Shown here in pieces: positions 162 through 62,171 of a stretch of DNA of 64,000 nt; within the stretch, counting starts at the first letter, position 1, and every line of letters starts with the position of its first letter. The stretch is from an archaeon (GTDB lineage: Archaea > Nanobdellota > Nanobdellia > Woesearchaeales > GW2011-AR9): positions 28,500 to 92,499 of the forward strand of contig JABHRS010000037.1 of the NCBI GenBank assembly GCA_018670085.1, written 5' to 3'. The notes under the pieces were generated by a model, which saw only the letters and a program-made list of their open reading frames with translations, was not told the origin of the DNA and did not search any database. The position numbers and the translations under genes were made by a program.

Positions 162-2579
162 ATGGCAACTAAGTTCAAAAAAGCGCAAGCAATAGACTAC
201 ATTAAAAAATATGTCAGAGCTGCAGACTATTTAACAGCAACCCAAATATATCTTCAAGACAACTATCTTCTCAAAAAGAGACTACAACATACCGATATCA
301 AGCCAAGGCTCCTTGGCCATTGGGGAACAAGTCCAGGAATAAACTTTGTCTATGCTAACCTCCAACGATTGATCACAGAAACAAATCAAAGTATGTTATT
401 CGTTTTAGGTCCAGGTCATGGGTTTCCAGCACTGCAAGCTAATCTTTTTATGGAAGGAAGCCTGCAAAAATTTTACAAACAAGCTACGCATTCAAAAAAA
501 GGGATAGAACACATTTCAAAAAATTTTTCCTGGCCATACGGTTTTCCAAGTCACAGTAACCCAGGGGCTCCTGGAGTAATTCTAGAAGGTGGTGAACTTG
601 GATACGCCTTAGCAACCAGTTTTGGAGCAGTTCTAAATAATCCAGACTTAATTGTTACCTGTTTAGTAGGTGATGGAGAAGCAGAAACTGGTCCAACAGC
701 AACTGCTTGGCATTGCAATAAATTTATTGATCCGAAAACAAATGGTGCCGTTCTTCCAATTATCCATTTAAATGGATACAAAATTTCAGGTCCTACAATT
801 TATGGTCGAATGTCTAATCAAGAGTTAACAATGCTCTTCAAAGGTTACGGTTATCATCCAATTATAGTGGATGAAAAAACTGATGACAAAATGTTTAGCA
901 GTATGTACGAAGCTACAAATTTGGCTCATAAAATGATTAAAAAAATTCAAACAGTAGCCAGGAAAAAAAATGCTAAAGCAACAATAAAACCAAAGTTCCC
1001 AATGATTATTCTAAGATCCAAAAAGGGATGGACTGGGATTAAAGAATTACATCATAAAAAGATGGAAGGAAATTGTTTAGCACATCAAGTAGTTGGAAAA
1101 AAAGCTAAAAAGGATGATTATGAATTAGAAAAGATAGAAAACTGGTTTAAATCCTACGAATTCAACAAGTTATTCTCTGAAAAAAAAGGATTTTGTAAAG
1201 AGATTAGATCAATTATTCCAAAACAGAATTATTGTATGGGATTAAACAAACATGCTTTTGCTGGAAGAATAAAAAAGAAACTTAAACTTCCAAACATCAA
1301 AAAACTATCTGAAGACTCCAGAATACCTGGAACCATTGGATCAAGTAGTATGAGAAGGGCAGGTGTTTACTTAGAACAACTATCAAAATTAAACCCTACA
1401 AATTTCCGTCTTTTCTCTCCAGATGAAACTTATTCAAACAAACTTGATGCCATTTTTAATTCAACAACAAGAGCTTTTACTTGGCCAAAAAAGTCTTGGG
1501 ATACAGACTTTGCAAGTTCAGGACAAGTAATTGAAATGCTCAGCGAACATACACTTCAAGGTTTAACTCAAGGTTATGTGCTAACCGGACGCCATGCAAT
1601 TTTCGCATCATACGAGGCTTTCGTTGAGATTATTAGCAGTATGGCAGATCAATATGAAAAGTTCATTAGAGTTTCAAGAAAAATACCTTGGCGACGTGGG
1701 GCTCCATCAATTAATTACATCTTAACATCTTCTGGTTGGCGTCAAGAACATAATGGATTTTCTCATCAAAACCCGAAATTTATTAGTGGAATGCTCGAAA
1801 AACCAGGCTGCATTGCAAATGTCTATTTCCCACCAGATGGATCATCTACCTTAGCAGTCTTAGAAAAATGTATGAAAACTGAAGATAGTATCAATGTGAT
1901 TGTTGCTGGAAAAACTGTTGAAGCCAGATGGCTCACAATAGAAAAAGCAAAACAAGAATTAGAAGAAGGATTTATGATTTGGGATTTCATTAGTGATAAA
2001 AATCCAGACATCGTTTTCGCAGCTGTTGGTGATTACCTCACTAAAGAGGCAATTGCGGGAATTGAATGTTTAAAACAAACATTTCCAAAAATAAAAGTTA
2101 GGTTTGTAAATATCATGGAATTAACTTCAATTGGAATTGGCAATAGTGTTGGACATCACCACAAATTGAGTAAATCTGAGCAAGAAAAAGAAAACAACAA
2201 AAAAATTAATCATGTCCAAAAAGCTTTCACCAAAAACAAATCTGTAATTTTCAATTACCATGGTTACCCACATGATGTTAACTCACTTTTAATTCATTAT
2301 GATAATCCAAAAAGGTTCCATGTACATGGCTACACTGAAAATGGTTCTACTACAACCCCATTTGATATGCATGTGAGAAATCAAACTAGTAGATGGCACT
2401 TATGTATTGAAGCAATTGATATACTTGCAAAGGAAGGAAAAATTCCAAAAAAACAAGCTGCTACTGAAATCAAAAAATTCCAAAAGAGATTAGCTGATCA
2501 CCATAACTACATCATCAAATACGGTGATGATCCAAAAGAAATTAAGTACTGGAAATATACTAATAACTCCCAATCCTAA
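162..2579 (+). CDS. xfp: Xylulose-5-phosphate/fructose-6-phosphate phosphoketolase
   Basis: 805 aa, the typical phosphoketolase length. N-terminal GHWGTSPG motif and overall thiamine-PP phosphoketolase architecture. Confidence 0.85.
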   Translation: MATKFKKAQAIDYIKKYVRAADYLTATQIYLQDNYLLKKRLQHTDIKPRLLGHWGTSPGINFVYANLQRLITETNQSMLFVLGPGHGFPALQANLFMEGSLQKFYKQATHSKKGIEHISKNFSWPYGFPSHSNPGAPGVILEGGELGYALATSFGAVLNNPDLIVTCLVGDGEAETGPTATAWHCNKFIDPKTNGAVLPIIHLNGYKISGPTIYGRMSNQELTMLFKGYGYHPIIVDEKTDDKMFSSMYEATNLAHKMIKKIQTVARKKNAKATIKPKFPMIILRSKKGWTGIKELHHKKMEGNCLAHQVVGKKAKKDDYELEKIENWFKSYEFNKLFSEKKGFCKEIRSIIPKQNYCMGLNKHAFAGRIKKKLKLPNIKKLSEDSRIPGTIGSSSMRRAGVYLEQLSKLNPTNFRLFSPDETYSNKLDAIFNSTTRAFTWPKKSWDTDFASSGQVIEMLSEHTLQGLTQGYVLTGRHAIFASYEAFVEIISSMADQYEKFIRVSRKIPWRRGAPSINYILTSSGWRQEHNGFSHQNPKFISGMLEKPGCIANVYFPPDGSSTLAVLEKCMKTEDSINVIVAGKTVEARWLTIEKAKQELEEGFMIWDFISDKNPDIVFAAVGDYLTKEAIAGIECLKQTFPKIKVRFVNIMELTSIGIGNSVGHHHKLSKSEQEKENNKKINHVQKAFTKNKSVIFNYHGYPHDVNSLLIHYDNPKRFHVHGYTENGSTTTPFDMHVRNQTSRWHLCIEAIDILAKEGKIPKKQAATEIKKFQKRLADHHNYIIKYGDDPKEIKYWKYTNNSQS

Positions 2580-2645
2580 TAACTCTTAACCAAAAACAGA
2601 AAAATTAATTTTTAGTATATACCAAAAAATTAGTTCCAGACTAAT

Positions 2646-3797
2646 TTGTTTATGTATATGAAAGTGAATAAAATGCCAATTCCAAAAAACAAAAATTATA
2701 TCTTCATTGCTGTTAATATCGGCAGCACTAGCAAAAAATATTCTGTGTATTCAAATCAAGAAGAAATAACTTCAATTAATGTATCTGAGTTACAAAAAAC
2801 AAAAAATCACCAATCATTTTCTATCAATGAATTTCTAAAACAAACAATGTCGGTGAATGGATTCAATATTAATAAAAATATAAAATTGATTTTTGGAATT
2901 CGAATTGTAGCTCCTGGAACATTTTTCACTAAACATCAAATAATTAATCAACGCTTTCTTGATAAGTTAAAAAAAGCCGAACCATTAGATCCAATTCATA
3001 TTAGTTCAACAATTAAAGAAATAAATGAGATCAGAAAACATTTTCCAAATTCCAAGATAATTGCTGTTTCTGATTCCAAGATCCATACTAACAGACCAGA
3101 ATATGCAAAAAATTATCCATTAAATAAAAAATTAATCAAAAAATTTGACCTTTACAAATTTGGTTACCATGGCCTAGCTGCAGGTTCTGCAATATCTCAG
3201 TTAAAATCAAAAAAAATACTAAAAGCAAAAACAATCATCTGCCATTTAGGTGGTGGTACTAGTGTCACAGCTATCAAAAATGGAAAAAGTATTGAGACCA
3301 CAATGGGTTTTAGCCCTCTTGAGGGAATTATGGGTGTTACAAGATCAGGTAGTTTAGATCCCACAATTCTGGATATATTATACAAAAATAAAAAAATAGA
3401 TTTATCAAAACTTTACCAATACTCCGGATTCCTTGGTCTCACAGGTTCAAGTGATTTGCTTAAGATCACTGAAAAATCAAAAAATAGATCAAATGAAAAT
3501 GAAAAGTTAGCTATTGATCTTTATTGTTATCAAGTACAAAAAGCTGTAGGGTCCGCAATCTCACAGATTAAAGGAGTAGATTTAATTGTGTTTACAGGTG
3601 GAATTGGAACTGGATCAAGCCTAATTAGGAAAAAAATTTGTGCGCAATTTGACTATCTCAATTTAAAATTAGATCATAAAAAAAACAAATATCATCTACC
3701 TGGAATCATTAGTGATAGGTACAGTAAAGTCAAAGTTGCTTTGGTACATATTGATGAAATGCAAGAAATTCTAAAAGTCTGCCAAAATTTTATATAA
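2646..3797 (+). CDS. ackA: Acetate kinase. True start probably at the internal Met near 2673 (MPIPKNK...).
   Basis: N-terminal IAVNIGSTSKKYSVY (cf. LVLNCGSSSxKYQL). HLGGGTSVTAIKNGKSIETTMGFSPLEGIMGVTRSGSLDP matches the acetate/propionate kinase signature. Sits immediately downstream of the phosphoketolase. Confidence 0.8.
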   Translation: MFMYMKVNKMPIPKNKNYIFIAVNIGSTSKKYSVYSNQEEITSINVSELQKTKNHQSFSINEFLKQTMSVNGFNINKNIKLIFGIRIVAPGTFFTKHQIINQRFLDKLKKAEPLDPIHISSTIKEINEIRKHFPNSKIIAVSDSKIHTNRPEYAKNYPLNKKLIKKFDLYKFGYHGLAAGSAISQLKSKKILKAKTIICHLGGGTSVTAIKNGKSIETTMGFSPLEGIMGVTRSGSLDPTILDILYKNKKIDLSKLYQYSGFLGLTGSSDLLKITEKSKNRSNENEKLAIDLYCYQVQKAVGSAISQIKGVDLIVFTGGIGTGSSLIRKKICAQFDYLNLKLDHKKNKYHLPGIISDRYSKVKVALVHIDEMQEILKVCQNFI

Positions 3798-3818: not shown

Positions 3819-5339
3819 ATGAATAAATCAAGACACTGGCCGCAAGAGTGGAACACAGATCCAAAGGTTCTACTAGTCAATGCTGGAAACGATGAAGGGA
3901 TGTCCAAAATTGCCAACGATGGATGTTTTCCGGCCCTTGGTGTATTAGCTCTTGGTACGTATATTCAAAAAAATATTCCAGAAATTGAAGTTCTCTGCCG
4001 AGATGGACAGGTTGTTTCAAATAAAAAAATAATGAATTTATATGATTCTGAAAATATCACTTTTTTAGGAATCAGCGTTCTTAGTACCTCATATCAAAAT
4101 GCCTTAGACCTTGCATACCAATCTGCTTGCTATGGTATTCCTGCAGTTTTTGGAAACGACCACGCAGCTCAAACTGCAGAAGCCCTTCTGAATGCTCACC
4201 CATATATTGGAGCTGTAGTAGGAAGTGAGTATGGTGAAGAGGCACTTGAAATGTTAGTTCGTGACAGTATCGGAGAAATCATAGATTTAGATTCAATTCC
4301 TCATCTTACGAGTACTTCCAATCAATTAATTAAGGGAAATCCTCGTATCTTTGATATCAAGAAAAAGCTTTCTGAACTATCGATCATCAATAGCAAACTC
4401 AACAATACTGGTAGCAGAACAACTGCACTGGATATCTTTCCAATTGTCGACCGAAGCCTTTACCCGGAAGACCACTGGGCAACTTACCTTAAACGTTACA
4501 AAGAAAAGTTTGGACATCTCCATAATGATGAAATTACTGGTGTAACTACCATGAATCGTGCTCGTGGATGTTCTCGTCAAGGACATTTAATCTGCAAACA
4601 CTGCGATATGGGTTTAGACATTGCATTTTCATCACCTGAAAAGTTTTGGGAAGAAGTAAAAACTGCACACAAACAAATTGCTGCTAATGTGTTTTATGAA
4701 GTTTGTGATAGCTTTTCAAGTTTTGGCAGATTCGTAAAATCAGTCGCCGACACTAAACCAAAAGATTTAGGTTTTGATCCTCACTTTTTTGTTTATGGGC
4801 AAGCAATTGATTTAGTTAGACGTCCAAAAATGGTTGAATATTTCAAAAAAATTGGAGTTTTTCGAGTAAACATTGGGCTTGAAGCAGGTTCCAACACCAC
4901 ATTACAACATATGAAAGGCAAATTCGATTCAGTTGCTATCAACTATACTGCATTAAAAAAATTAAAGGCAGCTGGTATTCATGCTTATGGTTCATTTGTT
5001 CTTGGAACTGAAGCCGAAACTCCTGAAACCCTCACTCAAACAGTTAATTTTGTTAAAAAAATAGTCACTGAAGGATTACTTCAAGATTTAGAAGTGCAAC
5101 CAATATTGCCTTTACCAAATAATTATTACGGAAGAGATCTTGTAATAAAAGGGATCATTTCAAGAAGAGAAGATTGGCCAAAAGATCTTGGAAGCATCTC
5201 TAGATTATACATTGACCAATGCTCCGGAATTTCTTATAATCAAGCAATCGAAGCTGCAGTAGAACTTCGTGAATTTGCAGCGATGTATGGGATTAATTTT
5301 GGCAGTGGAGTTTCAAATGAATCAACATACCAAAGTTAA
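3819..5339 (+). CDS. B12-binding-domain / radical SAM-like protein with an atypical Cys cluster
   Basis: N-terminal Rossmann-like B12-binding pattern (LLVNAGN...GISVLSTSYQ...FGNDHAA). RGC...CKHC (C-x8-C-x2-C) where CxxxCxxC is expected. VNIGLEAGSNTTLQHMKG resembles the radical-SAM GxE glycine-rich motif. Confidence 0.5.
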   Translation: MNKSRHWPQEWNTDPKVLLVNAGNDEGMSKIANDGCFPALGVLALGTYIQKNIPEIEVLCRDGQVVSNKKIMNLYDSENITFLGISVLSTSYQNALDLAYQSACYGIPAVFGNDHAAQTAEALLNAHPYIGAVVGSEYGEEALEMLVRDSIGEIIDLDSIPHLTSTSNQLIKGNPRIFDIKKKLSELSIINSKLNNTGSRTTALDIFPIVDRSLYPEDHWATYLKRYKEKFGHLHNDEITGVTTMNRARGCSRQGHLICKHCDMGLDIAFSSPEKFWEEVKTAHKQIAANVFYEVCDSFSSFGRFVKSVADTKPKDLGFDPHFFVYGQAIDLVRRPKMVEYFKKIGVFRVNIGLEAGSNTTLQHMKGKFDSVAINYTALKKLKAAGIHAYGSFVLGTEAETPETLTQTVNFVKKIVTEGLLQDLEVQPILPLPNNYYGRDLVIKGIISRREDWPKDLGSISRLYIDQCSGISYNQAIEAAVELREFAAMYGINFGSGVSNESTYQS

Positions 5340-34372: not shown

Positions 34373-34987
34373 ATGAATTACGAAAGCCAACTATTTGAAA
34401 TCGCACCTTCAATCAGAGAAGTAATGCTAAGTTCCAAGAGGTTGAACAATGGCAGTTTCTTAAGAGGCCGAACTGGGTGGATCAGAAGAGGAATAAAAAA
34501 TCCAGAATCAATTTATGAACATTCTTGTAAAGTTGCATTAGCTGCGTTCTACTTATTTGGAAATAATGAAGCACTTGAACTTGGAGCAATTCATGATTTT
34601 CCAGAGATATTCGAAGTAGACCATATCCCATGGGAAATTGATAATCTTGAAAAAATGTCCAGGGAGTATGCAGTTATGAGAAAATTAAAAGAGATTTTAC
34701 CAAATGGAAATCATTGGTATAATGTTTGGGACAAATATGAAACTAGAACAGGTATTGGAGAACTGGTTTATGAGTTAGATAAAATTTGTCCAGTGATTCA
34801 AGCAATAGAATATCTACCTGATTATCCTAACAACGATCTTGAAGAGTTCTATTCTTACACAAAAAAGAAAATAAGAAATCCTAAACTTCTCACATTACTA
34901 GACGAAATGTGGCTAAAGAGAGAAGAACATACAAAAAATGTTTATCAAGTATATTTTGACAAATTAAAAAAAATTCAGATAAATTAA
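34373..34987 (+). CDS. HD-domain phosphohydrolase (YfbR-like 5'-deoxynucleotidase type)
   Basis: IYEHSCKVALAA...GAIHDFPEIFEVDHIP (H...HD...D). Confidence 0.5.
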   Translation: MNYESQLFEIAPSIREVMLSSKRLNNGSFLRGRTGWIRRGIKNPESIYEHSCKVALAAFYLFGNNEALELGAIHDFPEIFEVDHIPWEIDNLEKMSREYAVMRKLKEILPNGNHWYNVWDKYETRTGIGELVYELDKICPVIQAIEYLPDYPNNDLEEFYSYTKKKIRNPKLLTLLDEMWLKREEHTKNVYQVYFDKLKKIQIN

Positions 34988-51632: not shown

Positions 51633-52025
51633 ATGGATTCATGTATTTTTTGCAAAATTGTTGTAGGTGAGATACCTAGTTACAAAGTTTTTGAAGATGA
51701 GAATTTTTTAGCCTTCTTAGATATTACACCAAAAAAAGAAGGTCATACATTGGTGATTCCCAAGAAACATTATAGATGGGTTTGGGATGTAAAAGAAAAT
51801 TATTCAGTAACTACAAATAAAGTTGCTAATGCTCTTAAGAAAGCATTTGACACCGATTGGGTTGTGTCTTTTGTGATGGGCGAAGAAGTTCATCATGCTC
51901 ATATCCATTTAGTCCCAAGGCAACGTGATGACGGGCACGGATCATTAATTAATGTAGATTCTAAAGTTGAAATAAATAAAGAAGAAATGCTTGAAATCGC
52001 TCAAAAAATTCGTGATTCTTTTTGA
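51633..52025 (+). CDS. HIT-family (histidine triad) nucleotide hydrolase
   Basis: CIFCKI..., HTLVIPKKH, HHAHIHLVP (HxHxHxx). Confidence 0.8.
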   Translation: MDSCIFCKIVVGEIPSYKVFEDENFLAFLDITPKKEGHTLVIPKKHYRWVWDVKENYSVTTNKVANALKKAFDTDWVVSFVMGEEVHHAHIHLVPRQRDDGHGSLINVDSKVEINKEEMLEIAQKIRDSF

Positions 52026-52106
52026 TTATCTAAATCAAGATACTACAGATTATAACCAGTAACTTTTTAAATAGGATTAATGGTCTATTGAATTACAGTG
52101 CATTTT

Positions 52107-52266
52107 GGCGAAGTGGCTTAACCTGGTTATAGCGCCACATGGAAAGAGAAATTCTCTTCTCAGGGCGAGGCTCATAAGAGATGAGCGATGAGACCCTCGG
52201 GTCAATGATTAACATCTCAGCTTCTGGGTTACGTGGAAGTCGGGAGTTCAAATCTCCCCTTCGCCA
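52107..52266 (+). tRNA. tRNA gene carrying an approx. 85-nt intron. Anticodon not confidently assigned (GAA/GGA readings both imperfect).
   Basis: Acceptor stem GGCGAAG/CTTCGCC with discriminator A. U8. D-arm GCUu...AGC with a ..CCUGGUUA.. loop. T-arm GGGAG-UUCAAAU-CUCCC. Anticodon-stem halves CCAC(A) at 52135-39 and (C)GUGG at 52232-36, separated by an intron-like insert with internal hairpins. Confidence 0.75.
52253..52266 (+). repeat. 14-bp direct repeat, copy 1 (3' end of the tRNA: ctccccttcgccac)
   Basis: Exact 14-mer recurs at 53096..53109. Confidence 0.8.
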
Positions 52267-52284
52267 CTATGCACTATTTTACTT

Positions 52285-52305
52285 GGGCCACTACCCACTG
52301 GTCAT
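52285..52305 (+). repeat. Left inverted repeat (gggccactacccactggtcat) of the LAGLIDADG mini-element
   Basis: Reverse complement of 53078..53098 with 2 mismatches over about 21 bp. Confidence 0.7.
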
Positions 52306-52346
52306 CTTCTACTAACCTTTATTAATTTTCATACCAAATTAACAAT

Positions 52347-52961
52347 ATGAAAATCACTAAAAATTTCGCAATTCTCTATGGAATCCTACTAGGAGATGGT
52401 TGTTTATCAAATACTTCCAAAGCAAGATATATTTGTATTACTTGTGACAGATATTCTGATAAAGAGTTGTTCAAAAAATTAACACCTATTATTGAAAAAA
52501 TAAGAGGTAAAAAAATTAAAATAAAAGATAGAGGAACACATGGAACAATTGAGATTAAATTCTCAGATAAAAAGATGTTTGAAACATTTAAAAAAATTGG
52601 TTTTCCAGTTGGGAAAAAAGGAGTAAATCTTTTCATCCCGAAAATTTTTAAAAATCATTTGAAGGAAGTTATTCAAGGTCATTTTGCAACGGATGGGTGT
52701 GTTGTAATCACAAACAATAATGGAATTAGATATCCAAGAATTGAATTTTCAAGTATCTCTAAAGGTCTTTTAGAACAAATAAACAAATATCTCATAAACA
52801 GTAATATTAGAAGTAAAATATATCTTTCAAAGAGATACACTAATGGATGGAATAATTTGTACAGAATTCAGATAAATGGAAAGAAACAACTATGTATTTT
52901 TGAAGAGAAAATAGGATTTTTCAACCCAAAACACAAAAAAATAGCAGATTCATTCAAATAA
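52347..52961 (+). CDS. LAGLIDADG homing endonuclease (double-motif, free-standing)
   Basis: ILYGILLGDGCL (first LAGLIDADG) and IQGHFATDGCV (second), separated by about 100 aa. Typical basic DNA-binding surface. Confidence 0.8.
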   Translation: MKITKNFAILYGILLGDGCLSNTSKARYICITCDRYSDKELFKKLTPIIEKIRGKKIKIKDRGTHGTIEIKFSDKKMFETFKKIGFPVGKKGVNLFIPKIFKNHLKEVIQGHFATDGCVVITNNNGIRYPRIEFSSISKGLLEQINKYLINSNIRSKIYLSKRYTNGWNNLYRIQINGKKQLCIFEEKIGFFNPKHKKIADSFK

Positions 52962-53077
52962 ATGCCTCCCCTTATGAACCAATTATTTCAAAAAATCTAG
53001 GTACCTGAGTTCTAACTTTAACAACTACATGCCAAGTATCATTTGGTTTACGTACTGTTCCTCCTTTATCCCTATGT

Positions 53078-53098
53078 ATGACCAGTGAGTAGTGGCTC
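53078..53098 (+). repeat. Right inverted repeat (atgaccagtgagtagtggctc) of the LAGLIDADG mini-element
   Basis: See 52285..52305. Confidence 0.7.
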
Positions 53099-53109
53099 CC
53101 CTTCGCCAC
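53096..53109 (+). repeat. 14-bp direct repeat, copy 2 (partial duplicate of the tRNA 3' end, no T-loop)
   Basis: ctccccttcgccac identical to 52253..52266. GC-rich 14-mer in an AT-rich genome. Confidence 0.8.
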
Positions 53110-53221
53110 CATTTTCTTTTAGTAGTAAGTTATAACTCTAAAGAAGTTGCTGATTTTATTTGGACAAGGAGAGAATGGCAGATGAGAAATATTCAAAAAT
53201 ATTAATAATAAAAATTAAAAA

Positions 53222-53659
53222 TCAAAGCATAAATGTAAGTCCACTGTATATTCTAGTCATTTTACTAGCACGTAAAAGATTACAATAATCATTATGTTCA
53301 GTAAAAACCTCTTCTATTGGTCTTGAAAGGAAACCATTTTTCATTTTAACTTCTTGTCCATCAGCAAAATTGAAACTTAATCTGTTTGGCTGATCTCCTT
53401 CAAACACTTGCGAACCTAAATAATAAACTCCAGAACCACCAATTCTAAGTTGATTACATTTCCTCCCTGTAGTCTCCATCCCACGTCGGATTGCTGAACT
53501 TTCATACATGAATACCATCTTATCATCAACCTTTACTTCGAGTAGATCTTCTCTTACTAATCCACTATAAAATGGAAGACTTTCTACAGTTCCGATCGCA
53601 CCGGAATCTTCCCATTTTTTCCAAAACCTAGGATTATTTTTTTTACTTTGATTTACCAT
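53222..53659 (-). CDS. Hypothetical protein
   Basis: ORF only. Lies between the two tRNA-fragment repeats. Confidence 0.45.
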   Translation of the reverse strand: MVNQSKKNNPRFWKKWEDSGAIGTVESLPFYSGLVREDLLEVKVDDKMVFMYESSAIRRGMETTGRKCNQLRIGGSGVYYLGSQVFEGDQPNRLSFNFADGQEVKMKNGFLSRPIEEVFTEHNDYCNLLRASKMTRIYSGLTFML

Positions 53660-54659: not shown

Positions 54660-54742
54660 GCCAACGTGGCACAATCTGGTACTGCGCAAGACTGGAAATC
54701 TTGTTTCCTCTGGATATCCCGGTTCAAATCCGGGCGTTGGCG
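54660..54742 (+). tRNA. tRNA-Ser (anticodon GGA), class II
   Basis: Acceptor GCCAACG/CGUUGGC, discriminator G. U8. 3-bp D-stem. Anticodon stem CAAGA/UCUUG with loop C-U-GGA-A-A. 14-nt variable arm. T-arm CCCGG-UUCAAAU-CCGGG. 83 nt. Confidence 0.85.
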
Positions 54743-55040
54743 CTTTTTCTTTTACCTAGCGCCGCACCTTAGAAATAGGGCATATTTGAGTATTGGACTT
54801 GTACTAACTTAAAAGATCCTATTCTAGGCTCTTTCAACAAGTGTAAGTCCTAATGGCCAAAGTAATCACTTATGGAATTCTATAAGCAGTTTCTTTGTTT
54901 TTGGAGTAAATAAGCCTCTGAACTATATAATATTTTCTTGGTAACATGGCCATTAGTGGTCCAGGAGGAATAAATACTCTTTTTCCCCATATTAGATCTG
55001 AACAATTCATCTGGTTCAAAATAATTTAGGGGGAAATACA

Positions 55041-55286: not shown

Positions 55287-55429
55287 AGTGTCTTGTCTGT
55301 AAAGGGGATGCCAATCAAGAACTTTGCGACACCTGTGCACAAATTCTGCTTGACAAATATCCTAACGAATCCATTTGGGATATCATCAAGCGTTACGAAG
55401 AATATTGCTATGGAGGTGAAGAAGAATGA
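55283..55429 (+). CDS. Small zinc-ribbon protein (48 aa, not in the supplied ORF track)
   Basis: MKCLVCKGDANQELCDTCAQ... (CxxC-x8-CxxC). Start and stop both in ATGA overlaps with neighbouring genes. Confidence 0.45.
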   Translation: MKCLVCKGDANQELCDTCAQILLDKYPNESIWDIIKRYEEYCYGGEEE

Positions 55430-55689
55430 TAGTAGGAGATTGGAAAGCAATACTTGCTACACTGTGGGTTGCATTGTGTCTTGTCTTTATTGTGTATATG
55501 ATAGAAGCGGCAAGTTATGATGTGGCTCTTGGTTTTATCGTAGGAGTAGCAGTTGTGTCAGTTTTCTTTTTGATACAACCAAACAAGTGCCGTGTTACTC
55601 AAGAAGAAGCTCCAGAAATTCTAGAAGAAGGAGATGACAGTTTACTAACACGGGTGTTTACACCTGGTTTTGTGGAGGTGAGACAATGA
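55426..55689 (+). CDS. Small two-TM membrane protein
   Basis: Two hydrophobic helices. ATGA-coupled on both sides. Confidence 0.5.
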   Translation: MIVGDWKAILATLWVALCLVFIVYMIEAASYDVALGFIVGVAVVSVFFLIQPNKCRVTQEEAPEILEEGDDSLLTRVFTPGFVEVRQ

Positions 55690-56012
55690 AACAAATATTT
55701 TCAGTCTTATTTTTGTTATTGCTGATTGCACCAATGGCATTTGCAGAAATAGACTTTGACGGAGAAGAACTCAGTACAGAAGAAGAAGCATTGCTTGATG
55801 AGATCATGGATCCAATATTCACAATTTACAATGCTCTGAAATATGTGGCAACTGTAATTGGTGTAATGGTTCTTGTCTTTGCAGGAGTTAGTTTAATGAC
55901 AGCTTCAGAACCTGCAAAAAAAGATCGAGCAAAGAATATGCTAATGGGAGTAGTTATTGGATTAACTATTATCTGGACAGCACCATTAATTGTGGAGTTA
56001 GTGTTCACATGA
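55686..56012 (+). CDS. VirB2/TrbC/CedA1-like pilin-type protein (signal peptide plus two TM helices)
   Basis: Cleavable signal MKQIFSVLFLLLLIAPMAFA, acidic segment, then two hydrophobic helices separated by a short K/R loop (SEPAKKDRAKNM). 108 aa. Confidence 0.5.
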   Translation: MKQIFSVLFLLLLIAPMAFAEIDFDGEELSTEEEALLDEIMDPIFTIYNALKYVATVIGVMVLVFAGVSLMTASEPAKKDRAKNMLMGVVIGLTIIWTAPLIVELVFT

Positions 56013-58045
56013 AACTAGCTCCATATTTTTTTCTTTTTGTATTATTAGTTAGCTCTGCGCTAGCTTTTGATTGCTCTTATGCTTCTGATAGCGAAGTTTG
56101 TGAAGAAGTGTTAGACTCTGATTTGGGTCGCTCTGAAATAGAAGAAGCTTTGTCTTCTCTTTTTTATGAAAAAACCAGTAATCCAGATCATGATTTTGTT
56201 TCAGAGTATAATAAGGCAATTGAAGTAAATTCTGCACCAAACGATGTTGAAATAATTGATTCTTCTTACATTTACGATGCATGGGTTTCTTTAGACACAC
56301 TGTCCCCTTCTGTTTATGAAACAGATGAGTTGTTAGTTCCGCCAGAAGTTGAAGCTATTTTTCACTCTGATTATTCTGTATCAATTCCTGGGTCTTACAC
56401 TGCAAGTAAATATCCTTACACCAATAGTGGCTACTGTAAACGCAGGTATTCATTGGCCTCTGAAGATGTAAAAGAATGGTTTTCAGTAAATGATGAATTA
56501 TTTGAAACCAATGAACTAACTGTAGGTAGCTCAAGTATAATATCTTATCATCAAAAAATTACTGTTAAGGTTAATGAAGCACAGTATAAATGGAAAGAAG
56601 TATGGAATAGTCATTATCACATGTATCAATGGAAGTGTGAATACTATAGAACTCTTACTCACACAGACGTTGTAGATTTAGAAGATAGTAAAGACGTAAG
56701 TAGGCGCACGCTAGATCCAAGTTATGCTATTCTTTGGTCATCACGTTATCGTGGCACTTCAACAGGCGAATTTTATGCGCACAACTACGCGCAAATAGAA
56801 TTGTCTTTTGGAAATTCCAGTTACACAGAGCAAGCGTTTGTGTACTATGTTGTGTTTGAAAAAGAACCGTACGATTTTGCAGTGTTAGTTGCCAAAGAAG
56901 TGGACAACACAGCAATTCAAGGAATGTATGTTGATGAAAACCTGTTTTATGTTGCTAACACTGCCTTGTGTCAAATAGTTGGTTACAACCATTTCTTCTC
57001 AATCACAGAAGATTGTGAAGTAGATGAAGATATTGAAGAATTAAGTGCTTCTTTTTCAACAGAGGAATCAAACTTTGATCTTACACTGTTGTATTATTTC
57101 ATTTTATTGGGTTTAGTATGCTATCTTCTTTTCAAGTTACTTGGTTCGCAGCTACGTAAAATTCTTCCATACTTTATTTTGCCGTTGTTATTGATTCCGA
57201 ATGTTTTGGCTGCGGATGAAGACTGTGGTCTTACCAATTTATCAAGTTGTATTCCTGAAGCGATGTATGATTTTATTTTAAGTATAATTAACTTGACATT
57301 ATCTCCAAGTTTAGAAATCATTCAAAATTTACTTACAAGTGATATTGACATTTCTCTCTTTTATCACGCATGGTCTGTAATACGCTATATGATTTCATTC
57401 TTCTATGTATTCTTTTTTGTCTACGCGGGCTGTGTGCTTTTGATGGGAAGTGCCAGTCCAATTCAGAGAGCGCACGCCAAAGATATGCTCAAGAACACGT
57501 TCATAATGATACTTCTGATTCACGGATCGTATTATCTTTATGATTTGTTTATTACACTTTCCAGTACAATGAGTGGGGCTATTTTAGAAATGATTGACCC
57601 TACATTCTTTATGCTGACAGCTGACAATATAATTAATATCGGGCTAGAGTTCATGTTTACTTGGTTCTATAGTTTGACATTAACATTCACAATATTATTT
57701 TTGACCTTTCGTTATATTGTTGTTGTTACAGGAGTGATTGTATTACCTATTGCACTTTTTTGTTTCTTTATTCCTCCTTTGAAAGCCTATGGTAAGTTTA
57801 TGCTTTCTGTAATTGGATTAATGCTCTTCATAACATTCATTGACTTGCTAATTATCTTAGCCTGTGCATCATTGGTAGAAATTACTCTGTTTGAAAGTAT
57901 GAAAATTTTAGTAATGATTGTTTGTTTTCTTTTCATCAATTACACACTATGGCTGTGCACTAAGTTTGCCTTTGCCATGAGTGTGAATGGTTCAATCAAA
58001 GATGATGTTAAGCAAGCTGCGAAGTATGTGGCATTGTTAGTGTAG
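56009..58045 (+). CDS. VirB6/TrbL/CedA-like polytopic membrane protein with a large N-terminal extracytoplasmic domain
   Basis: Signal peptide, an approx. 330-aa Cys-containing soluble domain, then at least 6 C-terminal TM helices. Operon partner of the VirB4-like ATPase. Confidence 0.5.
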   Translation: MKLAPYFFLFVLLVSSALAFDCSYASDSEVCEEVLDSDLGRSEIEEALSSLFYEKTSNPDHDFVSEYNKAIEVNSAPNDVEIIDSSYIYDAWVSLDTLSPSVYETDELLVPPEVEAIFHSDYSVSIPGSYTASKYPYTNSGYCKRRYSLASEDVKEWFSVNDELFETNELTVGSSSIISYHQKITVKVNEAQYKWKEVWNSHYHMYQWKCEYYRTLTHTDVVDLEDSKDVSRRTLDPSYAILWSSRYRGTSTGEFYAHNYAQIELSFGNSSYTEQAFVYYVVFEKEPYDFAVLVAKEVDNTAIQGMYVDENLFYVANTALCQIVGYNHFFSITEDCEVDEDIEELSASFSTEESNFDLTLLYYFILLGLVCYLLFKLLGSQLRKILPYFILPLLLIPNVLAADEDCGLTNLSSCIPEAMYDFILSIINLTLSPSLEIIQNLLTSDIDISLFYHAWSVIRYMISFFYVFFFVYAGCVLLMGSASPIQRAHAKDMLKNTFIMILLIHGSYYLYDLFITLSSTMSGAILEMIDPTFFMLTADNIINIGLEFMFTWFYSLTLTFTILFLTFRYIVVVTGVIVLPIALFCFFIPPLKAYGKFMLSVIGLMLFITFIDLLIILACASLVEITLFESMKILVMIVCFLFINYTLWLCTKFAFAMSVNGSIKDDVKQAAKYVALLV

Positions 58046-58103
58046 GTTAGCTAGGTGCATACTAGTTAGTCTTTAGAAGTGGTGAGGAAGGTAACGCTTC
58101 CTT

Positions 58104-58427
58104 TTATTTTCTTGGTTTACCTGAATTCACATGAAAATGTAAGTGTTTAGAATCTTGATAGTTTCCTAAATTCGTAAGAACTCTGCATTGTCCGTGTTCC
58201 TCTGTCACTTCTTTAGATACTCTTTGTAACACATCCATAATTTCTATGATTAATGATCTATCAGTCAATGTGAGTAAAGAATTAATATGCTTCTTTGGTA
58301 CAACAACAATATGTACTGGCCAAAATGGCTTCGTGTGATAATAAGCAAGCACATTTTCAGTTTCTAGTACCTTCTTAACAGGAGTCTTCCCACTGAAAAC
58401 TTCATCACAATAAAAGTCGTCTGTCAT
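58104..58427 (-). CDS. HIT-family protein
   Basis: HIVVVPKKHINSLL and HLHFHV (histidine triad). Confidence 0.75.
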   Translation of the reverse strand: MTDDFYCDEVFSGKTPVKKVLETENVLAYYHTKPFWPVHIVVVPKKHINSLLTLTDRSLIIEIMDVLQRVSKEVTEEHGQCRVLTNLGNYQDSKHLHFHVNSGKPRK

Positions 58428-58430
58428 CTT

Positions 58431-58826
58431 CTACCTTTTTGAAATAACTAGTTCTTTAAATTTAGTTGTTTCATCAACCTTCCTTTCAAACCTTAAATCC
58501 CCAATTTCTCCAATGATAATTTCTGCGGTTGTGTAAATTATACATCCTTCTTTGAGATGTCCACCAAAGGTGTTACCATCTTTATCAGAGATAGAAAGAT
58601 GAAGATGTACTCCATCTGGTGAAAGAGTTCCCACAAGACTTACAATCTCAAACTTCTCTACAAATTCCTTTTTAATGTTTTCATCAGCTAATCGAAGTGT
58701 TGCTTTTGATAAAGAACCAACACAAGTAAGTATAACTCCTGCTTGAATTTTATTCTCATTGCAAAATTTGATTACTCTTTTTTTAAGATCTTGACCAGGA
58801 TGCAGCCGTATAGCATATGTTCTCAT
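58431..58826 (-). CDS. DUF296/PPC-domain (COG1661-like) predicted DNA-binding protein
   Basis: ILTCVGSLSKATLRL...GVHLHLSISDKDGNTFGGHL pattern typical of DUF296. Confidence 0.5.
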   Translation of the reverse strand: MRTYAIRLHPGQDLKKRVIKFCNENKIQAGVILTCVGSLSKATLRLADENIKKEFVEKFEIVSLVGTLSPDGVHLHLSISDKDGNTFGGHLKEGCIIYTTAEIIIGEIGDLRFERKVDETTKFKELVISKR

Positions 58827-58863
58827 GGTACCTCAATGTTTACTTCAATTATAAATTCTTCTC

Positions 58864-61800
58864 ATGGCATACGACATACCACCACCACTAAGGCACAAGG
58901 AAGCCATTCTCTGGGGCCTGAACTGGAACCAGATCGGCTACGCAGCGCCAGCTCTGATCTTCAGCCTCTTTATCATCCTTAAAGCACCTTTTCCAATCGA
59001 AGTGTCTTTAGCAATTTCTGGTATTATTGTCACAATTGCTGTCTTCTTCATGTTCTTCAACGGCTTAAACAGAGCAAAGAACTTGATTCATCACCTTTTT
59101 AATCAAGAAGTAGAAGTTAATTCTGATACACTCAAAAGTATTGTAGACATTCAAAAAATTGAAAACGATATTGTATACAATTCATCACAAAAATTAGCAG
59201 TTTTAGAAATCATCCCCTTGAACTTCCTCATCAAAACAAAGGAAGAACAAGAAACAATCATTCTTGGATTTCAGAAGTTTCTCAATAGCTTAGATTTTCC
59301 AATCCAAATTCATGTGAGTAGCCATGAAATAGATTTGAAAGAGCATTTTGCAAAAGTATCAAAGAAATCAAAGAACTACAAAGAACTTTTCAAGTCATAC
59401 AAACAGTTTATTGAGGAGTCTACTAAAGATATCAAAAACAGAAAATTCTACATCATTATCAACGAGAAAGACAACTTAGAAATTCAAACAAAAGTCTGCG
59501 AAGAAAAATTACGTTGCTTAGGATTGAAAGTACAAAGACTGCAAAGTAATCAATTACTCAATTTATTCTTTGAATATATTGCAAACAATAAACAAAAAGA
59601 ACTGAAGGAAGGAGAAGAAATAGAAAATTATACTCATCATTTGCTTTCACCCAACAAAATCACCTTTTTTCATGATTTTTTGCAAGTAGATGATAATTTC
59701 TATAAAATTATTGCAGTCACAGGTTATCCTCATTCTGTTGAGATGGGTTTTCTGGATAAAATAATTTCATCTGGTGATAATTATGATGTCTCCTTGCATA
59801 TTGATCCCTTTCCAATTGAAGATATGATGATTCAACTCAATAGAGAATTACAAAAACAACAATCAGACTTGTATGCAGATAGTAACAAAGGAATCATTAA
59901 TCCTTCTTTAGAGATCAAATACAAATCAACTAGAGCTGTGTTAGAAGATTTGCAGAAAGGTAAGCAAAAACTCTTCGATGTGTCTTTGTATGTGATGTGC
60001 AAGGGATCCAGTAAGGAAGAAGCTGCCTTGTTATCTAAGAAGGTGAAAGCTGATTTTGATGGCCTGATGATTCAAAGTACGCAGCCAACTTTTCAGATGC
60101 AACATTGCTATGAATCAATGCTTCCGTTAGGGCGCGACACTGTAAAGATCAAGCGAAATATTCACACTACTGGATTATCAGCGTTCTTTCCCTTTAGTTC
60201 GCCTTTCTTAGATGTTGATAATGATGGGATATTATTAGGTCTTAACAAGAATGGAATTCCTTACATCAAAGACATTTTCCAATTAACTAATCAAAATGGT
60301 TTAGTCCTGGCTACTAGTGGTGCTGGGAAGAGTTATTATGTGAAGTTAATGATTTCTCGTCAGCACCTCAATGGCTGTGATGTGATCATAATTGACCCAC
60401 AAGGAGAGTATTTAGCAATTACAGAACATTACAAGGGAGAAACAATAACCATCTCTAAGGACTCAGAAACGATCATCAACCCTCTTGATTTAATGGGTCA
60501 TGAATATCTTGAGAAACGATTGTCTTTAATGGATTTATTTCAAATTATGTTTGGTGAATTAACAGAAATTCAAAAAGCTATTTTGGATAAATCAATTGAT
60601 TTAACCTATGCTAGAAAAGGAATCAATAGAGATAGTTATGATAAGAAGCCTCCAAAATTACAAGATTTGTACCAAGTTCTCAAAAGTTTAGAAGGTGAAT
60701 GTGCACAACAAGAGAAAGTTACCTATCGTGCATTATTGAATCGTTTAGGAATGTATACTGGCAATGGTGTGTTTTCTTTTTTGGATAAAGACACCAATAT
60801 TGATTTTGATAACAATTTTGTCTGTTTCAATATAGGAGATATGCCAAAACAAGTCAAACCAGTTGTGATGTATTTAGTTCTAGATTTTGTCTATATGCGA
60901 ATGAAGAAGTCTTTGCAAAGAAAGATTTTAGTGATCGATGAAGCATGGAGTTTATTGCAGACCGCAGAAGAATCATCATACATCTTTGAGATCGTTAAAA
61001 CCTGCCGTAAATACAATATGGGCCTATTAATGATAACTCAAGATGTAGGTGATTTAGTTGGTTCCAAAGCAGGAGCTGCGGTACTCGCGAATACTTCCTA
61101 CACATTTCTTTTACGTCAAAAATCAGCTATTATCAGCAATGTTGCTAGAACCTTTAATCTTAGTTCTAATGAGAAAGATTACTTGGTGACTGCTGAAGCA
61201 GGCAATGGAATTATGATCTTGGAGAATGAACATCAAGAATTGAAAGTGATTGCCTCAGAGAAAGAACATGAATTAGTCACAACCAACCCTGATGAAATGA
61301 TCAAGAAAAATGAGAAGAAGAAAGGCAAGAAGATACCTAAAGGTGAAGTTGAGATCATGTTAAGTATTGAGCAAGATGTGTATCCAGCAAATGACTTAAC
61401 TATTGAAGATCAAAATTTCTTGGTTAATCATGACTATGTTCTTGGCAGTTATCATGGTTTGAGCAAAGGCAGGCAAAAAGAATACTTTGTGAAGAAAAGA
61501 AAACCAGAGGGAGCCTTGCATACCTATTATGTGAATTTGATCTATGAAGAGATTAGAAAGCATACTAAGAATGCTTTGAAGAGTAGAACTAAAGAACCAG
61601 ATATTGTGTTTACTAACGCACAAGGAGAGAAGATAGCAATTGAAGTAGAGTCTGGGATTGATGTGAAATATCTGAATAAGAAAAGATATCACAATGAAAA
61701 ATTTGCAATAAGAAAAAAACAATACGGGATGAATTGCTACATATTTTTACACAAGGTAAGGTTAGAGAATAGTTACAAACGTCATGATCTTCCTATTCTC

Positions 61801-61971
61801 TTTAGAGATAATATAGAAAACTTTGTGACCTCCCAAATGAGAGGTTACAAAGAGAATATATCGTTGAAGAATCAGACATCACAAATGGCTAATTCTAAGG
61901 GTAGAAGGTCTAAAACGCCAAAATCAGAGGTCACAAGAGACATCACAAAAACAGGAGGTAAATTAACATGA
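58864..61971 (+). CDS. VirB4/TrbE/CagE-family (CedB-like) DNA-transfer ATPase with N-terminal TM helices and a C-terminal nuclease-like extension
   Basis: Walker A LATSGAGKSYYVK. Walker B ILVIDEAWSLL (DEAW). MITQDVGDL sensor. Two N-terminal TM helices (VirB3-like). The last approx. 250 aa contain EPDIVF...KIAIEVESG. Confidence 0.85.
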   Translation: MAYDIPPPLRHKEAILWGLNWNQIGYAAPALIFSLFIILKAPFPIEVSLAISGIIVTIAVFFMFFNGLNRAKNLIHHLFNQEVEVNSDTLKSIVDIQKIENDIVYNSSQKLAVLEIIPLNFLIKTKEEQETIILGFQKFLNSLDFPIQIHVSSHEIDLKEHFAKVSKKSKNYKELFKSYKQFIEESTKDIKNRKFYIIINEKDNLEIQTKVCEEKLRCLGLKVQRLQSNQLLNLFFEYIANNKQKELKEGEEIENYTHHLLSPNKITFFHDFLQVDDNFYKIIAVTGYPHSVEMGFLDKIISSGDNYDVSLHIDPFPIEDMMIQLNRELQKQQSDLYADSNKGIINPSLEIKYKSTRAVLEDLQKGKQKLFDVSLYVMCKGSSKEEAALLSKKVKADFDGLMIQSTQPTFQMQHCYESMLPLGRDTVKIKRNIHTTGLSAFFPFSSPFLDVDNDGILLGLNKNGIPYIKDIFQLTNQNGLVLATSGAGKSYYVKLMISRQHLNGCDVIIIDPQGEYLAITEHYKGETITISKDSETIINPLDLMGHEYLEKRLSLMDLFQIMFGELTEIQKAILDKSIDLTYARKGINRDSYDKKPPKLQDLYQVLKSLEGECAQQEKVTYRALLNRLGMYTGNGVFSFLDKDTNIDFDNNFVCFNIGDMPKQVKPVVMYLVLDFVYMRMKKSLQRKILVIDEAWSLLQTAEESSYIFEIVKTCRKYNMGLLMITQDVGDLVGSKAGAAVLANTSYTFLLRQKSAIISNVARTFNLSSNEKDYLVTAEAGNGIMILENEHQELKVIASEKEHELVTTNPDEMIKKNEKKKGKKIPKGEVEIMLSIEQDVYPANDLTIEDQNFLVNHDYVLGSYHGLSKGRQKEYFVKKRKPEGALHTYYVNLIYEEIRKHTKNALKSRTKEPDIVFTNAQGEKIAIEVESGIDVKYLNKKRYHNEKFAIRKKQYGMNCYIFLHKVRLENSYKRHDLPILFRDNIENFVTSQMRGYKENISLKNQTSQMANSKGRRSKTPKSEVTRDITKTGGKLT

Positions 61972-62171
61972 AAACAGAATTGTTATGGTATTCCCTTGGA
62001 GGGTTGGTGCTTAGTTTTGGGTTATACTTTATCCAAAAATGGGTTACATTCTTTCCAGAGATTGTAGTGCAAGTAGTCTTCTGGATCTGTCTTGGCGTAT
62101 TTGGATTAGCTATGTTGATGCAGGTGTTGGTAGCTGTGAAGAAGTGGTGGGGAGAGATGCGTGGTGATTGA
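61968..62171 (+). CDS. Small two-TM membrane protein, ATGA-coupled to the VirB4-like gene
   Basis: 67 aa, two hydrophobic helices. Start overlaps the VirB4 stop. Confidence 0.45.
   Translation: MKTELLWYSLGGLVLSFGLYFIQKWVTFFPEIVVQVVFWICLGVFGLAMLMQVLVAVKKWWGEMRGD

Follow-up and report, generated by a model that had tools for sequence, protein, structure and literature searches.

We analyzed a 64-kb window of archaeal DNA (contig JABHRS010000037.1; positions are counted from the window start, and L-numbers denote the loci or contigs with which it was compared) in which a gene for a LAGLIDADG endonuclease lies directly behind an intron-containing gene for a tRNA-Met with the anticodon CAT, and in which copies of the 3′ end of this tRNA recur on the far side of the endonuclease gene. 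The host is a Woesearchaeota-like archaeon of the DPANN group. From sequence comparisons, we think it probable, though well short of certain, that the gene specifies a free-standing homing endonuclease that targets tRNA-Met genes, carries replacement tRNA sequence with it, and leaves displaced pieces of tRNA behind. If this is true, then a selfish nuclease attacks an essential single-copy tRNA gene, and the host survives by means of the replacement tRNA sequence that the invader carries. The original prediction, made from the sequence of the window, had described the segment as a miniature mobile element bounded by terminal inverted repeats (TIRs) with a target-like duplication, or else as the remnant of a tRNA-targeting integrative element.

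Organization of the locus

The locus consists of the following features.

52107..52266, plus strand: tRNA-Met(CAT) gene, with exons at 52107-52138, 52170-52176, and 52231-52266
52254..52267, plus strand: copy 1 of a 14-mer, made up of the 3′ strand of the T-stem, the 3′ strand of the acceptor stem, A73, and a C, and belonging to the functional tRNA
52285..52305, plus strand: left inverted-repeat arm, which corresponds to a promoter-upstream motif of the endonuclease family, with the core CCCACTGGTCA at 52294-52304
52318..52325, plus strand: TATA-like box TTTATTAA, 29 nucleotides (nt) before the ATG; homologous loci have such a box at the corresponding position
52347..52961, plus strand: free-standing gene for a monomeric two-motif LAGLIDADG endonuclease of 204 amino acids (aa), from Pfam, alignment, and structure model
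52966..52981, plus strand: copy 3, a decayed tRNA 3′ end, CTCCCCTTATGAACCA, starting 5 nt past the endonuclease stop codon
52982..53077, no strand: non-coding spacer of 96 nt, with no open reading frame (ORF) that matches any family and no Rfam match
53078..53098, minus strand: right inverted-repeat arm, which corresponds to a second, inverted copy of the promoter-upstream motif
53096..53111, plus strand: copy 2, an orphan tRNA 3′ exon with encoded CCA, from sequence match

The 14-mer CTCCCCTTCGCCAC occurs at 52254-52267 and again at 53096-53109, as originally predicted, and has no further match across the 64 kb even when up to 2 mismatches are allowed (0.06 expected). Copy 1 is trailed by TATG. 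Copy 2 reads ...GCCACCA and then runs into the T-run TTTTCTTTT at 53112-53120, and thus an encoded CCA and a proper T-run are present at copy 2 and absent at copy 1. Copy 2 had rightly been taken for a fragment and not for a second tRNA, and a search for bulge-helix-bulge (BHB) structures found no canonical BHB that would join the T-loop to it. The tRNA 3′ end is present in three copies and not in the two that had been described; the decayed copy 3 has a T-loop-like TTCAAAT just upstream of it at 52953-52959, and the pattern CTCCCCTTNNNNACCA, which was picked post hoc with the sequence already seen, occurs only at copy 3 and at 53096 (0.00 expected). Because the tRNA 3′ end is found three times, we read the locus as an array in which the tRNA with copy 1 is followed by the motif, the TATA box, and the endonuclease gene (52268-52965), then by the decayed 3′ end, then by a 114-nt stretch ending in the reversed motif (52982-53095), and last by the orphan 3′ end with its CCA and T-run. 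From its architecture, the 96-nt spacer within the 114-nt stretch may be the relic of an older cassette in antisense orientation. Matches to CACTGGACA at 34787 and 49303 look like chance; the former was inspected and the latter lies inside an ORF.

The imperfect inverted repeat of about 21 bp is real, with arms at 52285/7-52305 and 53078-53096/8 that can be described either as 19 nt at 95% complementarity or as 21 nt with one C-A mismatch and one G-T pair, and 300 shuffles produced no inverted repeat of such quality. Folded together, the two arms give a plain helix of 21 bp that is interrupted by one 1x1 internal loop (duplex energy -34.9 kcal/mol), and not a BHB substrate. They are also not flush with the direct repeats, as read from distances in the window sequence: 17-19 nt separate copy 1 from the left arm, and the right arm overlaps copy 2 by 1-3 nt.

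The endonuclease and its promoter

Between the repeats, 52347-52961 is the only substantial ORF, and its product is the two-motif LAGLIDADG protein that had been recognized there. The 204-aa protein matches Pfam LAGLIDADG_3 (7e-17) and LAGLIDADG_2 (PF14528 and PF03161), and the catalytic Asp residues in GDG (D17) and TDG (D116) are invariant in an alignment of 44 sequences. In an AlphaFold2 model with a mean predicted local distance difference test score (pLDDT) of 96.7, helices 5-17 and 99-116 end at D17 and D116, and thus the protein has two helices that each end in a catalytic acid, in one chain that holds two repeats of the alpha-beta-beta-alpha-beta-beta-alpha fold, as is the case for LAGLIDADG enzymes. 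The best Foldseek match of this model was I-Tsp061I (2dch, 3e-12), with PI-PfuI and I-DmoI among the next matches, and a family profile search likewise matched I-Tsp061I (2dch), intein endonuclease domains, and I-DmoI; a phmmer search of the single protein against PDB sequences gave 0 matches. The gene is apparently intact, and we take its product, as modeled, to be a monomeric two-domain LAGLIDADG enzyme of the archaeal type with its catalytic residues kept.

LAGLIDADG genes usually sit in a self-splicing intron, a BHB intron, or an intein, although this is not obligatory. Here, no Rfam intron family, including Intron_gpI, was matched in 51950-53350 at E ≤ 10, which led us to reject a group I intron, and a BHB search found no BHB at the ends of the 842-nt segment. 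The gene is free-standing, with its own start codon and TATA box, and is not in an intron or intein, just as had been proposed. The distance from the TATA box to the ATG suggests an mRNA that would be nearly leaderless.

The left inverted-repeat arm overlaps sequence that recurs at other family members. About 20 Woese-type loci carry a motif with the core CACTGG(A/T)CA, often duplicated as a direct repeat, at a distance of 13-16 nt upstream of their TATA box. L063, which encodes a protein 54% identical to that of the window, has the 18-mer GCCACTACCCACTGGTCA in common with the window's left arm, and L010 carries CCCACTGGTCA at the same -53 position as the window. In every fetched locus but the window, the motif is on the promoter side only. 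From these comparisons, we conclude that the left arm is most readily seen as a conserved promoter-upstream motif and not as a transposon end.

Linkage of the family to tRNA(CAT)

The protein has 146 homologues at E ≤ 1e-3, and all of the named ones are from Woese-, Pace-, Nano-, or Aenigmarchaeota, that is, from DPANN archaea. A genome scan gave 134 family loci, of which we fetched 80, each from a different assembly. At least 65 of these 80 have a tRNA(CAT) within about 120 nt of the endonuclease gene, as counted with two crude tRNA finders, and more were seen by eye; three of the remaining loci are cut off by the end of their contig. The endonuclease and tRNA genes usually converge, with 2-120 nt between their 3′ ends, and they are co-oriented in the window and in L010, L017, L018, L035, L063, L091, and L094. 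Distant members of the family (32-34% identity) adjoin initiator-type tRNAs that start with AGCGGGG. We found no report in the literature of a free-standing LAGLIDADG family that is linked to a single tRNA species in the genomes of cellular archaea.

In 51 of the 80 loci, a HIT gene is found no more than 2.5 kb from the endonuclease gene, and synteny of HIT and tRNA(CAT) extends across Woese-, Pace-, and Nanoarchaeota. Identities of the HIT and endonuclease proteins are weakly correlated (rho 0.36), and we gave this correlation no weight as evidence, since a second HIT paralogue is present in the window.

Presence and absence of the gene in related loci

With the HIT protein as an anchor, we found six loci that are syntenic with the window, three with an endonuclease gene and three without. 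The three without it (L096, L120, and L121) share the HIT gene and the tRNA with the window. In L096, the order is HIT, tRNA, and a gene for a 210-aa protein, where HIT is 78% identical and the 210-aa protein 60% identical to their counterparts in the window, and the endonuclease gene is missing. Thus the gene is present in some relatives and absent in others, which is the opposite of the conserved tRNA flank that would have spoken against a mobile segment.

The 3′ part of the tRNA differs among these loci. The L096 tRNA has a 46-nt insert (1244-1289) between the T-loop and CTCCCCTTCGCCAC, which is an hBHBh′ intron at position 59/60 with H1 GGGAG/CTCCC, H2 TTCA/TGAG, and bulges AA|T and AG|T. 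L121 has the same 14-mer 3′ exon behind a 22-nt T-loop intron (~4338-4359), and L120 has a contiguous T-arm. L098 and L122 carry an antisense gene of a second subfamily (B), whose products are 28-30% identical to that of the window and 46% identical to each other. It follows from the comparison of syntenic loci that one and the same locus can hold a gene of subfamily A in sense orientation, a gene of subfamily B in antisense orientation, or nothing.

A metagenome scan by the D and anticodon arms of the tRNA gave 21 loci, 20 of which are without an endonuclease gene. Many of the 21 have T-arm introns, at 59/60 (16 to ~170 nt) or 53/54, and the introns of the tRNA-Met family as a whole are at 30/31, 37/38, 53/54, and 59/60. 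A tRNA pattern search in viral contigs gave 0 matches.

T-arm introns are common in the tRNA-Met of gene-less relatives (L096, L121, and L099-L119), where those at 59/60 have the consensus 3′ end TGAAAGT|C. The ~170-nt intron of L103 holds a TATA-like GAGATATAAAC that resembles the endonuclease promoters.

Orphan tRNA pieces beside the gene

Many family members have orphan pieces of tRNA(CAT) next to them on their promoter side. In relatives with the antisense gene (L098, L021, L024, and L025), this side begins with the TATA box and the reversed motif and continues, a few nt farther on, with a tRNA 3′ exon of 14 nt and a T-run. The right arm of the window is placed relative to its orphan 3′ exon just as the reversed motif is in these four loci, so that the right arm and the second 14-mer, which had been taken for the end of an element, correspond to the junction between reversed motif and orphan 3′ exon of the antisense-gene relatives. 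At L098 this junction reads ATGTCCAGTGACCAGTGGACA-AAATTCAATT-CTCCCCTTCGCCAC, where the orphan is the window's own 14-mer; the complete tRNA of L098 ends in CTCGGCACCGCCA, unlike its orphan. The orphan exons of the other three loci are CTCCCCTTCGGCAC (L025), CTCGTCACCGCCAC (L021), and CACGCCACCGCCAC (L024). All four orphans differ from the complete tRNA next to them, and other lineages have complete tRNAs whose 3′ ends equal, or come close to, the orphans of L021 and L024. Foreign tRNA alleles beside native orphans suggest co-conversion.

Larger pieces are found as well. The orphan of L020 begins at G31 and bears both a 37/38 intron and a T-loop intron. In L030 (reverse complement, 2402-3250) and L049 (reverse complement, 2379-3245), a tRNA(CAT), which we call Y, is cut into positions 1-26 and 27-73 by a block that consists of a second, complete tRNA(CAT), called X, and an antisense endonuclease gene, and the acceptor halves of the split Y are still perfectly complementary. 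We considered that Y might be one spliced gene and rejected this, as there is no BHB. In 19 of 78 loci, versus 3.8% of control windows, the TATA box of the endonuclease gene is directly adjoined by an orphan anticodon arm, and the orphans start at about 27/31 and 54/61, near the intron positions.

The intron-containing tRNA-Met gene

The tRNA to whose 3′ end the endonuclease gene is tied had been described as intron-containing, and we find that it has two BHB introns. Intron 1 (52139-52169) is 31 nt long and lies at position 30/31, with a BHB of H2 CGCC/GGCG and bulges AC|A and AG|G, and intron 2 (52177-52230) is 54 nt long and lies at 37/38, with a BHB of H2 CTCA/TGGG. The three-exon model was obtained by comparison of homologous loci and by a BHB search validated on L096, in which the finder recovers the T-loop and 37/38 introns of L096 as well as the 30/31 and 37/38 introns of the window. 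When spliced in silico, the gene gives a 75-nt sequence that forms a perfect cloverleaf and that default ARAGORN recognizes as tRNA-Met(CAT), and it is identical to the spliced tRNA of L096. The unspliced gene is called neither by default ARAGORN nor by Rfam at the gathering score. A low-score ARAGORN call of Pro(GGG) with one 83-nt intron proved wrong after comparison with L010, L013, and L096 and in-silico splicing. For annotation, this means that default tRNA finders miss such a tRNA-Met and that att sites or the ends of a transposon can be wrongly read into orphan fragments.

Several further features of the tRNA gene were observed. The leader AGTGCAT (52097-52103) pairs with the trailer ATGCACT (52269-52275), which extends the acceptor stem past a 3x3 internal loop and is absent in L096, and the trailer GCCACTATGCACT is similar to the left arm GCCACTACCCACT. 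The sequence of the 37/38 intron (52181-52230 in the window; also in L096, L098, L099-L122, and L020-L033) is kept across very distant lineages, and its conserved parts are TTGAGCGATGAG, a hairpin, (C)GATGA(C/T)TAA, and ACTG(G/A)G just before the 3′ splice site. With two GAUGA and one CUGA/CUGG, it looks like a box C/D sequence, and because TGAGC is complementary to the anticodon-loop GCUCA, the intron could be a cis guide for modification of C34.

A homing model and its alternatives

We propose that the enzyme would cut tRNA-Met alleles that are without the gene, probably within the stretch from the T-arm to the 3′-acceptor part, with GGGAGTTCAAATCTCCCCTTCGCCACCATTTTC as the predicted site in a tRNA-Met(CAT) allele; in other subgroups, the cut may fall near the anticodon stem. 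Repair would then copy the endonuclease gene plus the adjoining donor tRNA sequence, and because the donor tRNA is copied along with the gene, the recipient tRNA would work while its own 3′ part would be displaced downstream as an orphan. The window would record at least two generations of invasion, in the order functional 3′ end, current sense gene, decayed 3′ end, 114-nt relic with reversed motif, and orphan with CCA. Given such an array of cassette generations, the "TIRs" would be two copies of one promoter-upstream motif that belong to cassettes in opposite orientations, or the arms may instead be the footprint of an inversion between motif copies. The support for homing, in the sense of cutting and gene conversion, is indirect and comes from presence and absence among syntenic loci and from the orphan tRNA pieces. 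Compared to what is expected of Seg/Mob-type enzymes, the intergenic position, the linkage to tRNA(CAT) in at least 65 of 80 loci, and the presence/absence pattern are all observed, and the target itself is a prediction.

Several observations weigh against this model. Long vertical inheritance accompanied by losses would likewise be consistent with the synteny of HIT, tRNA-Met, and endonuclease in 51 of 80 loci, and the mismatch between HIT and endonuclease identities is confounded by the second HIT paralogue. The nearest gene-less lineage is only 78% identical in HIT, the sample of 21 metagenome loci is biased because the search pattern required that there be no 30/31 intron, and the exact predicted empty site, TTCAAATCTCCCCTTCGCCACCA, had 0 matches in the metagenome contigs. 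Among the loci fetched, the inverted second copy of the motif is found in the window lineage only. Lastly, because the functional tRNA and the orphan share the 14-mer, self-immunity would need a site that reaches into the flanks or into an intron-interrupted part of the tRNA.

Because of the broad synteny, the main rival is a domesticated gene, that is, a vertically inherited LAGLIDADG protein of the HIT/tRNA-Met neighborhood, such as a host regulator or nuclease, with the motif as its operator and the repeats as the result of local duplication and decay. We consider this unlikely. It would account for synteny of HIT and tRNA(CAT) over Woese-, Pace-, and Nanoarchaeota, for the upstream motif at a fixed spacing from the TATA box, and for the 80 fetched loci being from 80 different assemblies. 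It would also fit the nine same-population contigs L001-L009, which are 99.95-100% identical here (identical or one base different) and thus have no variation in orientation or presence among them. However, the gene is missing from three of the six window-syntenic loci and from 20 of the 21 related tRNA loci, two subfamilies that are 28% identical occupy one locus in opposite orientations in related hosts, and the orphan tRNA ends come from other tRNA alleles; the catalytic Asp is invariant too, though this alone would also be compatible with a domesticated nuclease. Another way to read the window is that the 842 nt are a giant 59/60 T-loop intron, where copy 2 is the real 3′ exon, copy 1 is intronic, and a splicing endonuclease of relaxed specificity removes what is between. 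L096 and L121 do have a BHB intron at exactly that place, with the same 14-mer behind it, the mature tRNA comes out identical when the T-loop is joined to copy 2, and it is copy 2, not copy 1, that has the encoded CCA and T-run. We nevertheless judge a giant intron to be improbable: the contiguous gene is already a perfect cloverleaf, and the 3′ junction is without a canonical BHB, since TGAG is followed by 6 nt, not 3, before CTCCC. The best candidates for a BHB reaching copy 2, or for one formed from the arms, had three of four H2 pairs and needed a slipped plain helix, and we rejected them. The fragments in relatives adjoin complete tRNAs with different acceptor sequences and so are unlikely to be their partners; by eye, the acceptor stem of the L098 pair would contain one mismatch plus one wobble pair.

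Integration classically leaves direct repeats of a tRNA 3′ end, and the 14-mers could be attL and attR of an integrase-mediated element of which the rest was deleted, in line with the second half of the original prediction. In L010-L012, L121, and L122, the endonuclease/tRNA locus does have genes of the Phage_integr_3 or Phage_integrase families at a distance of 0.3-1.5 kb. Yet the window has no recombinase within ~10 kb of the locus, the repeat measures only 14 nt and is present in three copies, the integrase of L121 and L122 adjoins a tRNA-Ser that bears its own scars, and the junction of reversed motif and orphan recurs with the endonuclease gene and not with integrases, which together leave an integrative remnant only a slender chance. 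Least probable is a miniature transposable element that is bounded by TIRs and has duplicated 14 bp of its target site. A single gene is indeed bracketed by an inverted repeat of 19-21 nt and by a direct repeat, but the left arm occurs in homologous loci as a promoter motif in single copy, the arms are not flush with the direct repeats, as described above, the "duplication" is a segment of a functional tRNA in three copies, no transposase is present, and neither the 64 kb nor any fetched locus holds the unit a second time.

The homing model can be extended into a broader and more speculative scheme, which we offer tentatively and regard as open to serious doubt. A DPANN lineage of free-standing LAGLIDADG enzymes would home into tRNA-Met/Ile2-type (CAT) genes as a cassette with its own cleavage-resistant tRNA or the 3′ part of one, the introns at 30/31, 53/54, and 59/60 together with the broken halves would be footprints of this conflict or immunity devices, and homing endonucleases would thereby drive fragmentation of archaeal tRNA genes. 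The causal link between the endonuclease and the intron positions is one that we infer. If true, the scheme would give a testable cause for odd-position introns and broken tRNA genes in archaea.

Comparison with known systems

Homing by free-standing enzymes is known as "intronless homing" and is carried out by Seg and Mob enzymes. Phage SegB is free-standing, co-localizes with tRNA genes in many phages, cuts inside them, and yields tandem repeats of tRNA plus segB via microhomology (PMC13096335). We regard SegB, a GIY-YIG enzyme of T4/T6, as the closest analogue of the window gene. Both genes lie free between other genes and are linked to tRNA genes, and in our own reading the SegB consensus RAWTSGAAC resembles the reverse complement of the T-loop region. 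The two differ in that SegB is a GIY-YIG enzyme of phages that is linked to any isotype, whereas the window family is LAGLIDADG, on a DPANN chromosome, and specific to tRNA(CAT). Moreover, SegB leaves whole-gene repeats whereas the window family leaves partial 3′ exons, and cleavage by the window enzyme is a prediction.

In fold and sequence, the window enzyme is closest to the archaeal enzymes encoded in rRNA BHB introns (I-Tsp061I, I-DmoI, and I-PorI), with matches to 2dch (3e-12) and to I-DmoI, and these are monomeric two-motif enzymes as well. A further tie to intron-encoded enzymes is that the BHB intron of the gene-less relatives sits where the orphan 3′ exon begins. Unlike the genes of these intron-encoded enzymes, the window gene is outside an intron, has its own TATA box, and neighbors a tRNA and not an rRNA gene. 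The archaeal group I introns reported are all in rRNA genes, and about half of them have LAGLIDADG ORFs (PMC6125680).

As in tRNA elements of tyrosine recombinases, direct repeats of the tRNA 3′ part are present and a functional tRNA is kept. The window differs from such elements in having no integrase within ~10 kb, a short repeat in three copies, and a promoter motif of the endonuclease as the partner of the orphan. Fragmented archaeal tRNA genes, including those with non-canonical BHB introns and split or tri-split genes, were reportedly described by Marck and Grosjean in 2003, by Randau and Soll in 2008, and by Fujishima in 2009. The window tRNA family resembles these in its non-canonical introns and in orphans that start near intron positions, and differs in that the window's own fragments are not spliceable partners.

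Neighboring genes

Between the orphan 3′ exon and the 210-aa gene is a 145-aa ORF (53222-53659, minus strand). It matches no Pfam or PHROGs family and has only a chance-level NCBIfam match. L096 and L098 have no such ORF at the corresponding position, and so it would be a second lineage-specific insertion beside the endonuclease gene.

A tRNA-Ser(GGA) gene lies at 54660-54743, and just past it, at 55340-62000, is a cluster with a TrbC/type IV secretion system (T4SS)-pilin-like gene, a 678-aa gene, a PCC-domain gene, and a gene for a 1035-aa TraC/VirB4-like ATPase; the second HIT paralogue (58104-58427, minus strand) is in this cluster as well. The cluster may encode an apparatus for conjugation-like transfer or for cell contact, or it may be an element that has integrated here.

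Integrase genes also lie near some of the compared loci. In L010-L012 at ~4400-5320, the closest homologous endonuclease gene has Phage_integr_3 ORFs, either whole or split, ~1 kb downstream of it. In L121 at 4385-4720, a tRNA-Ser gene has several inserts, one of which appears to hold a second complete tRNA-Ser, with a Phage_integrase gene directly after; nested scars of integration, or else a tRNA inside an intron, may account for this arrangement.

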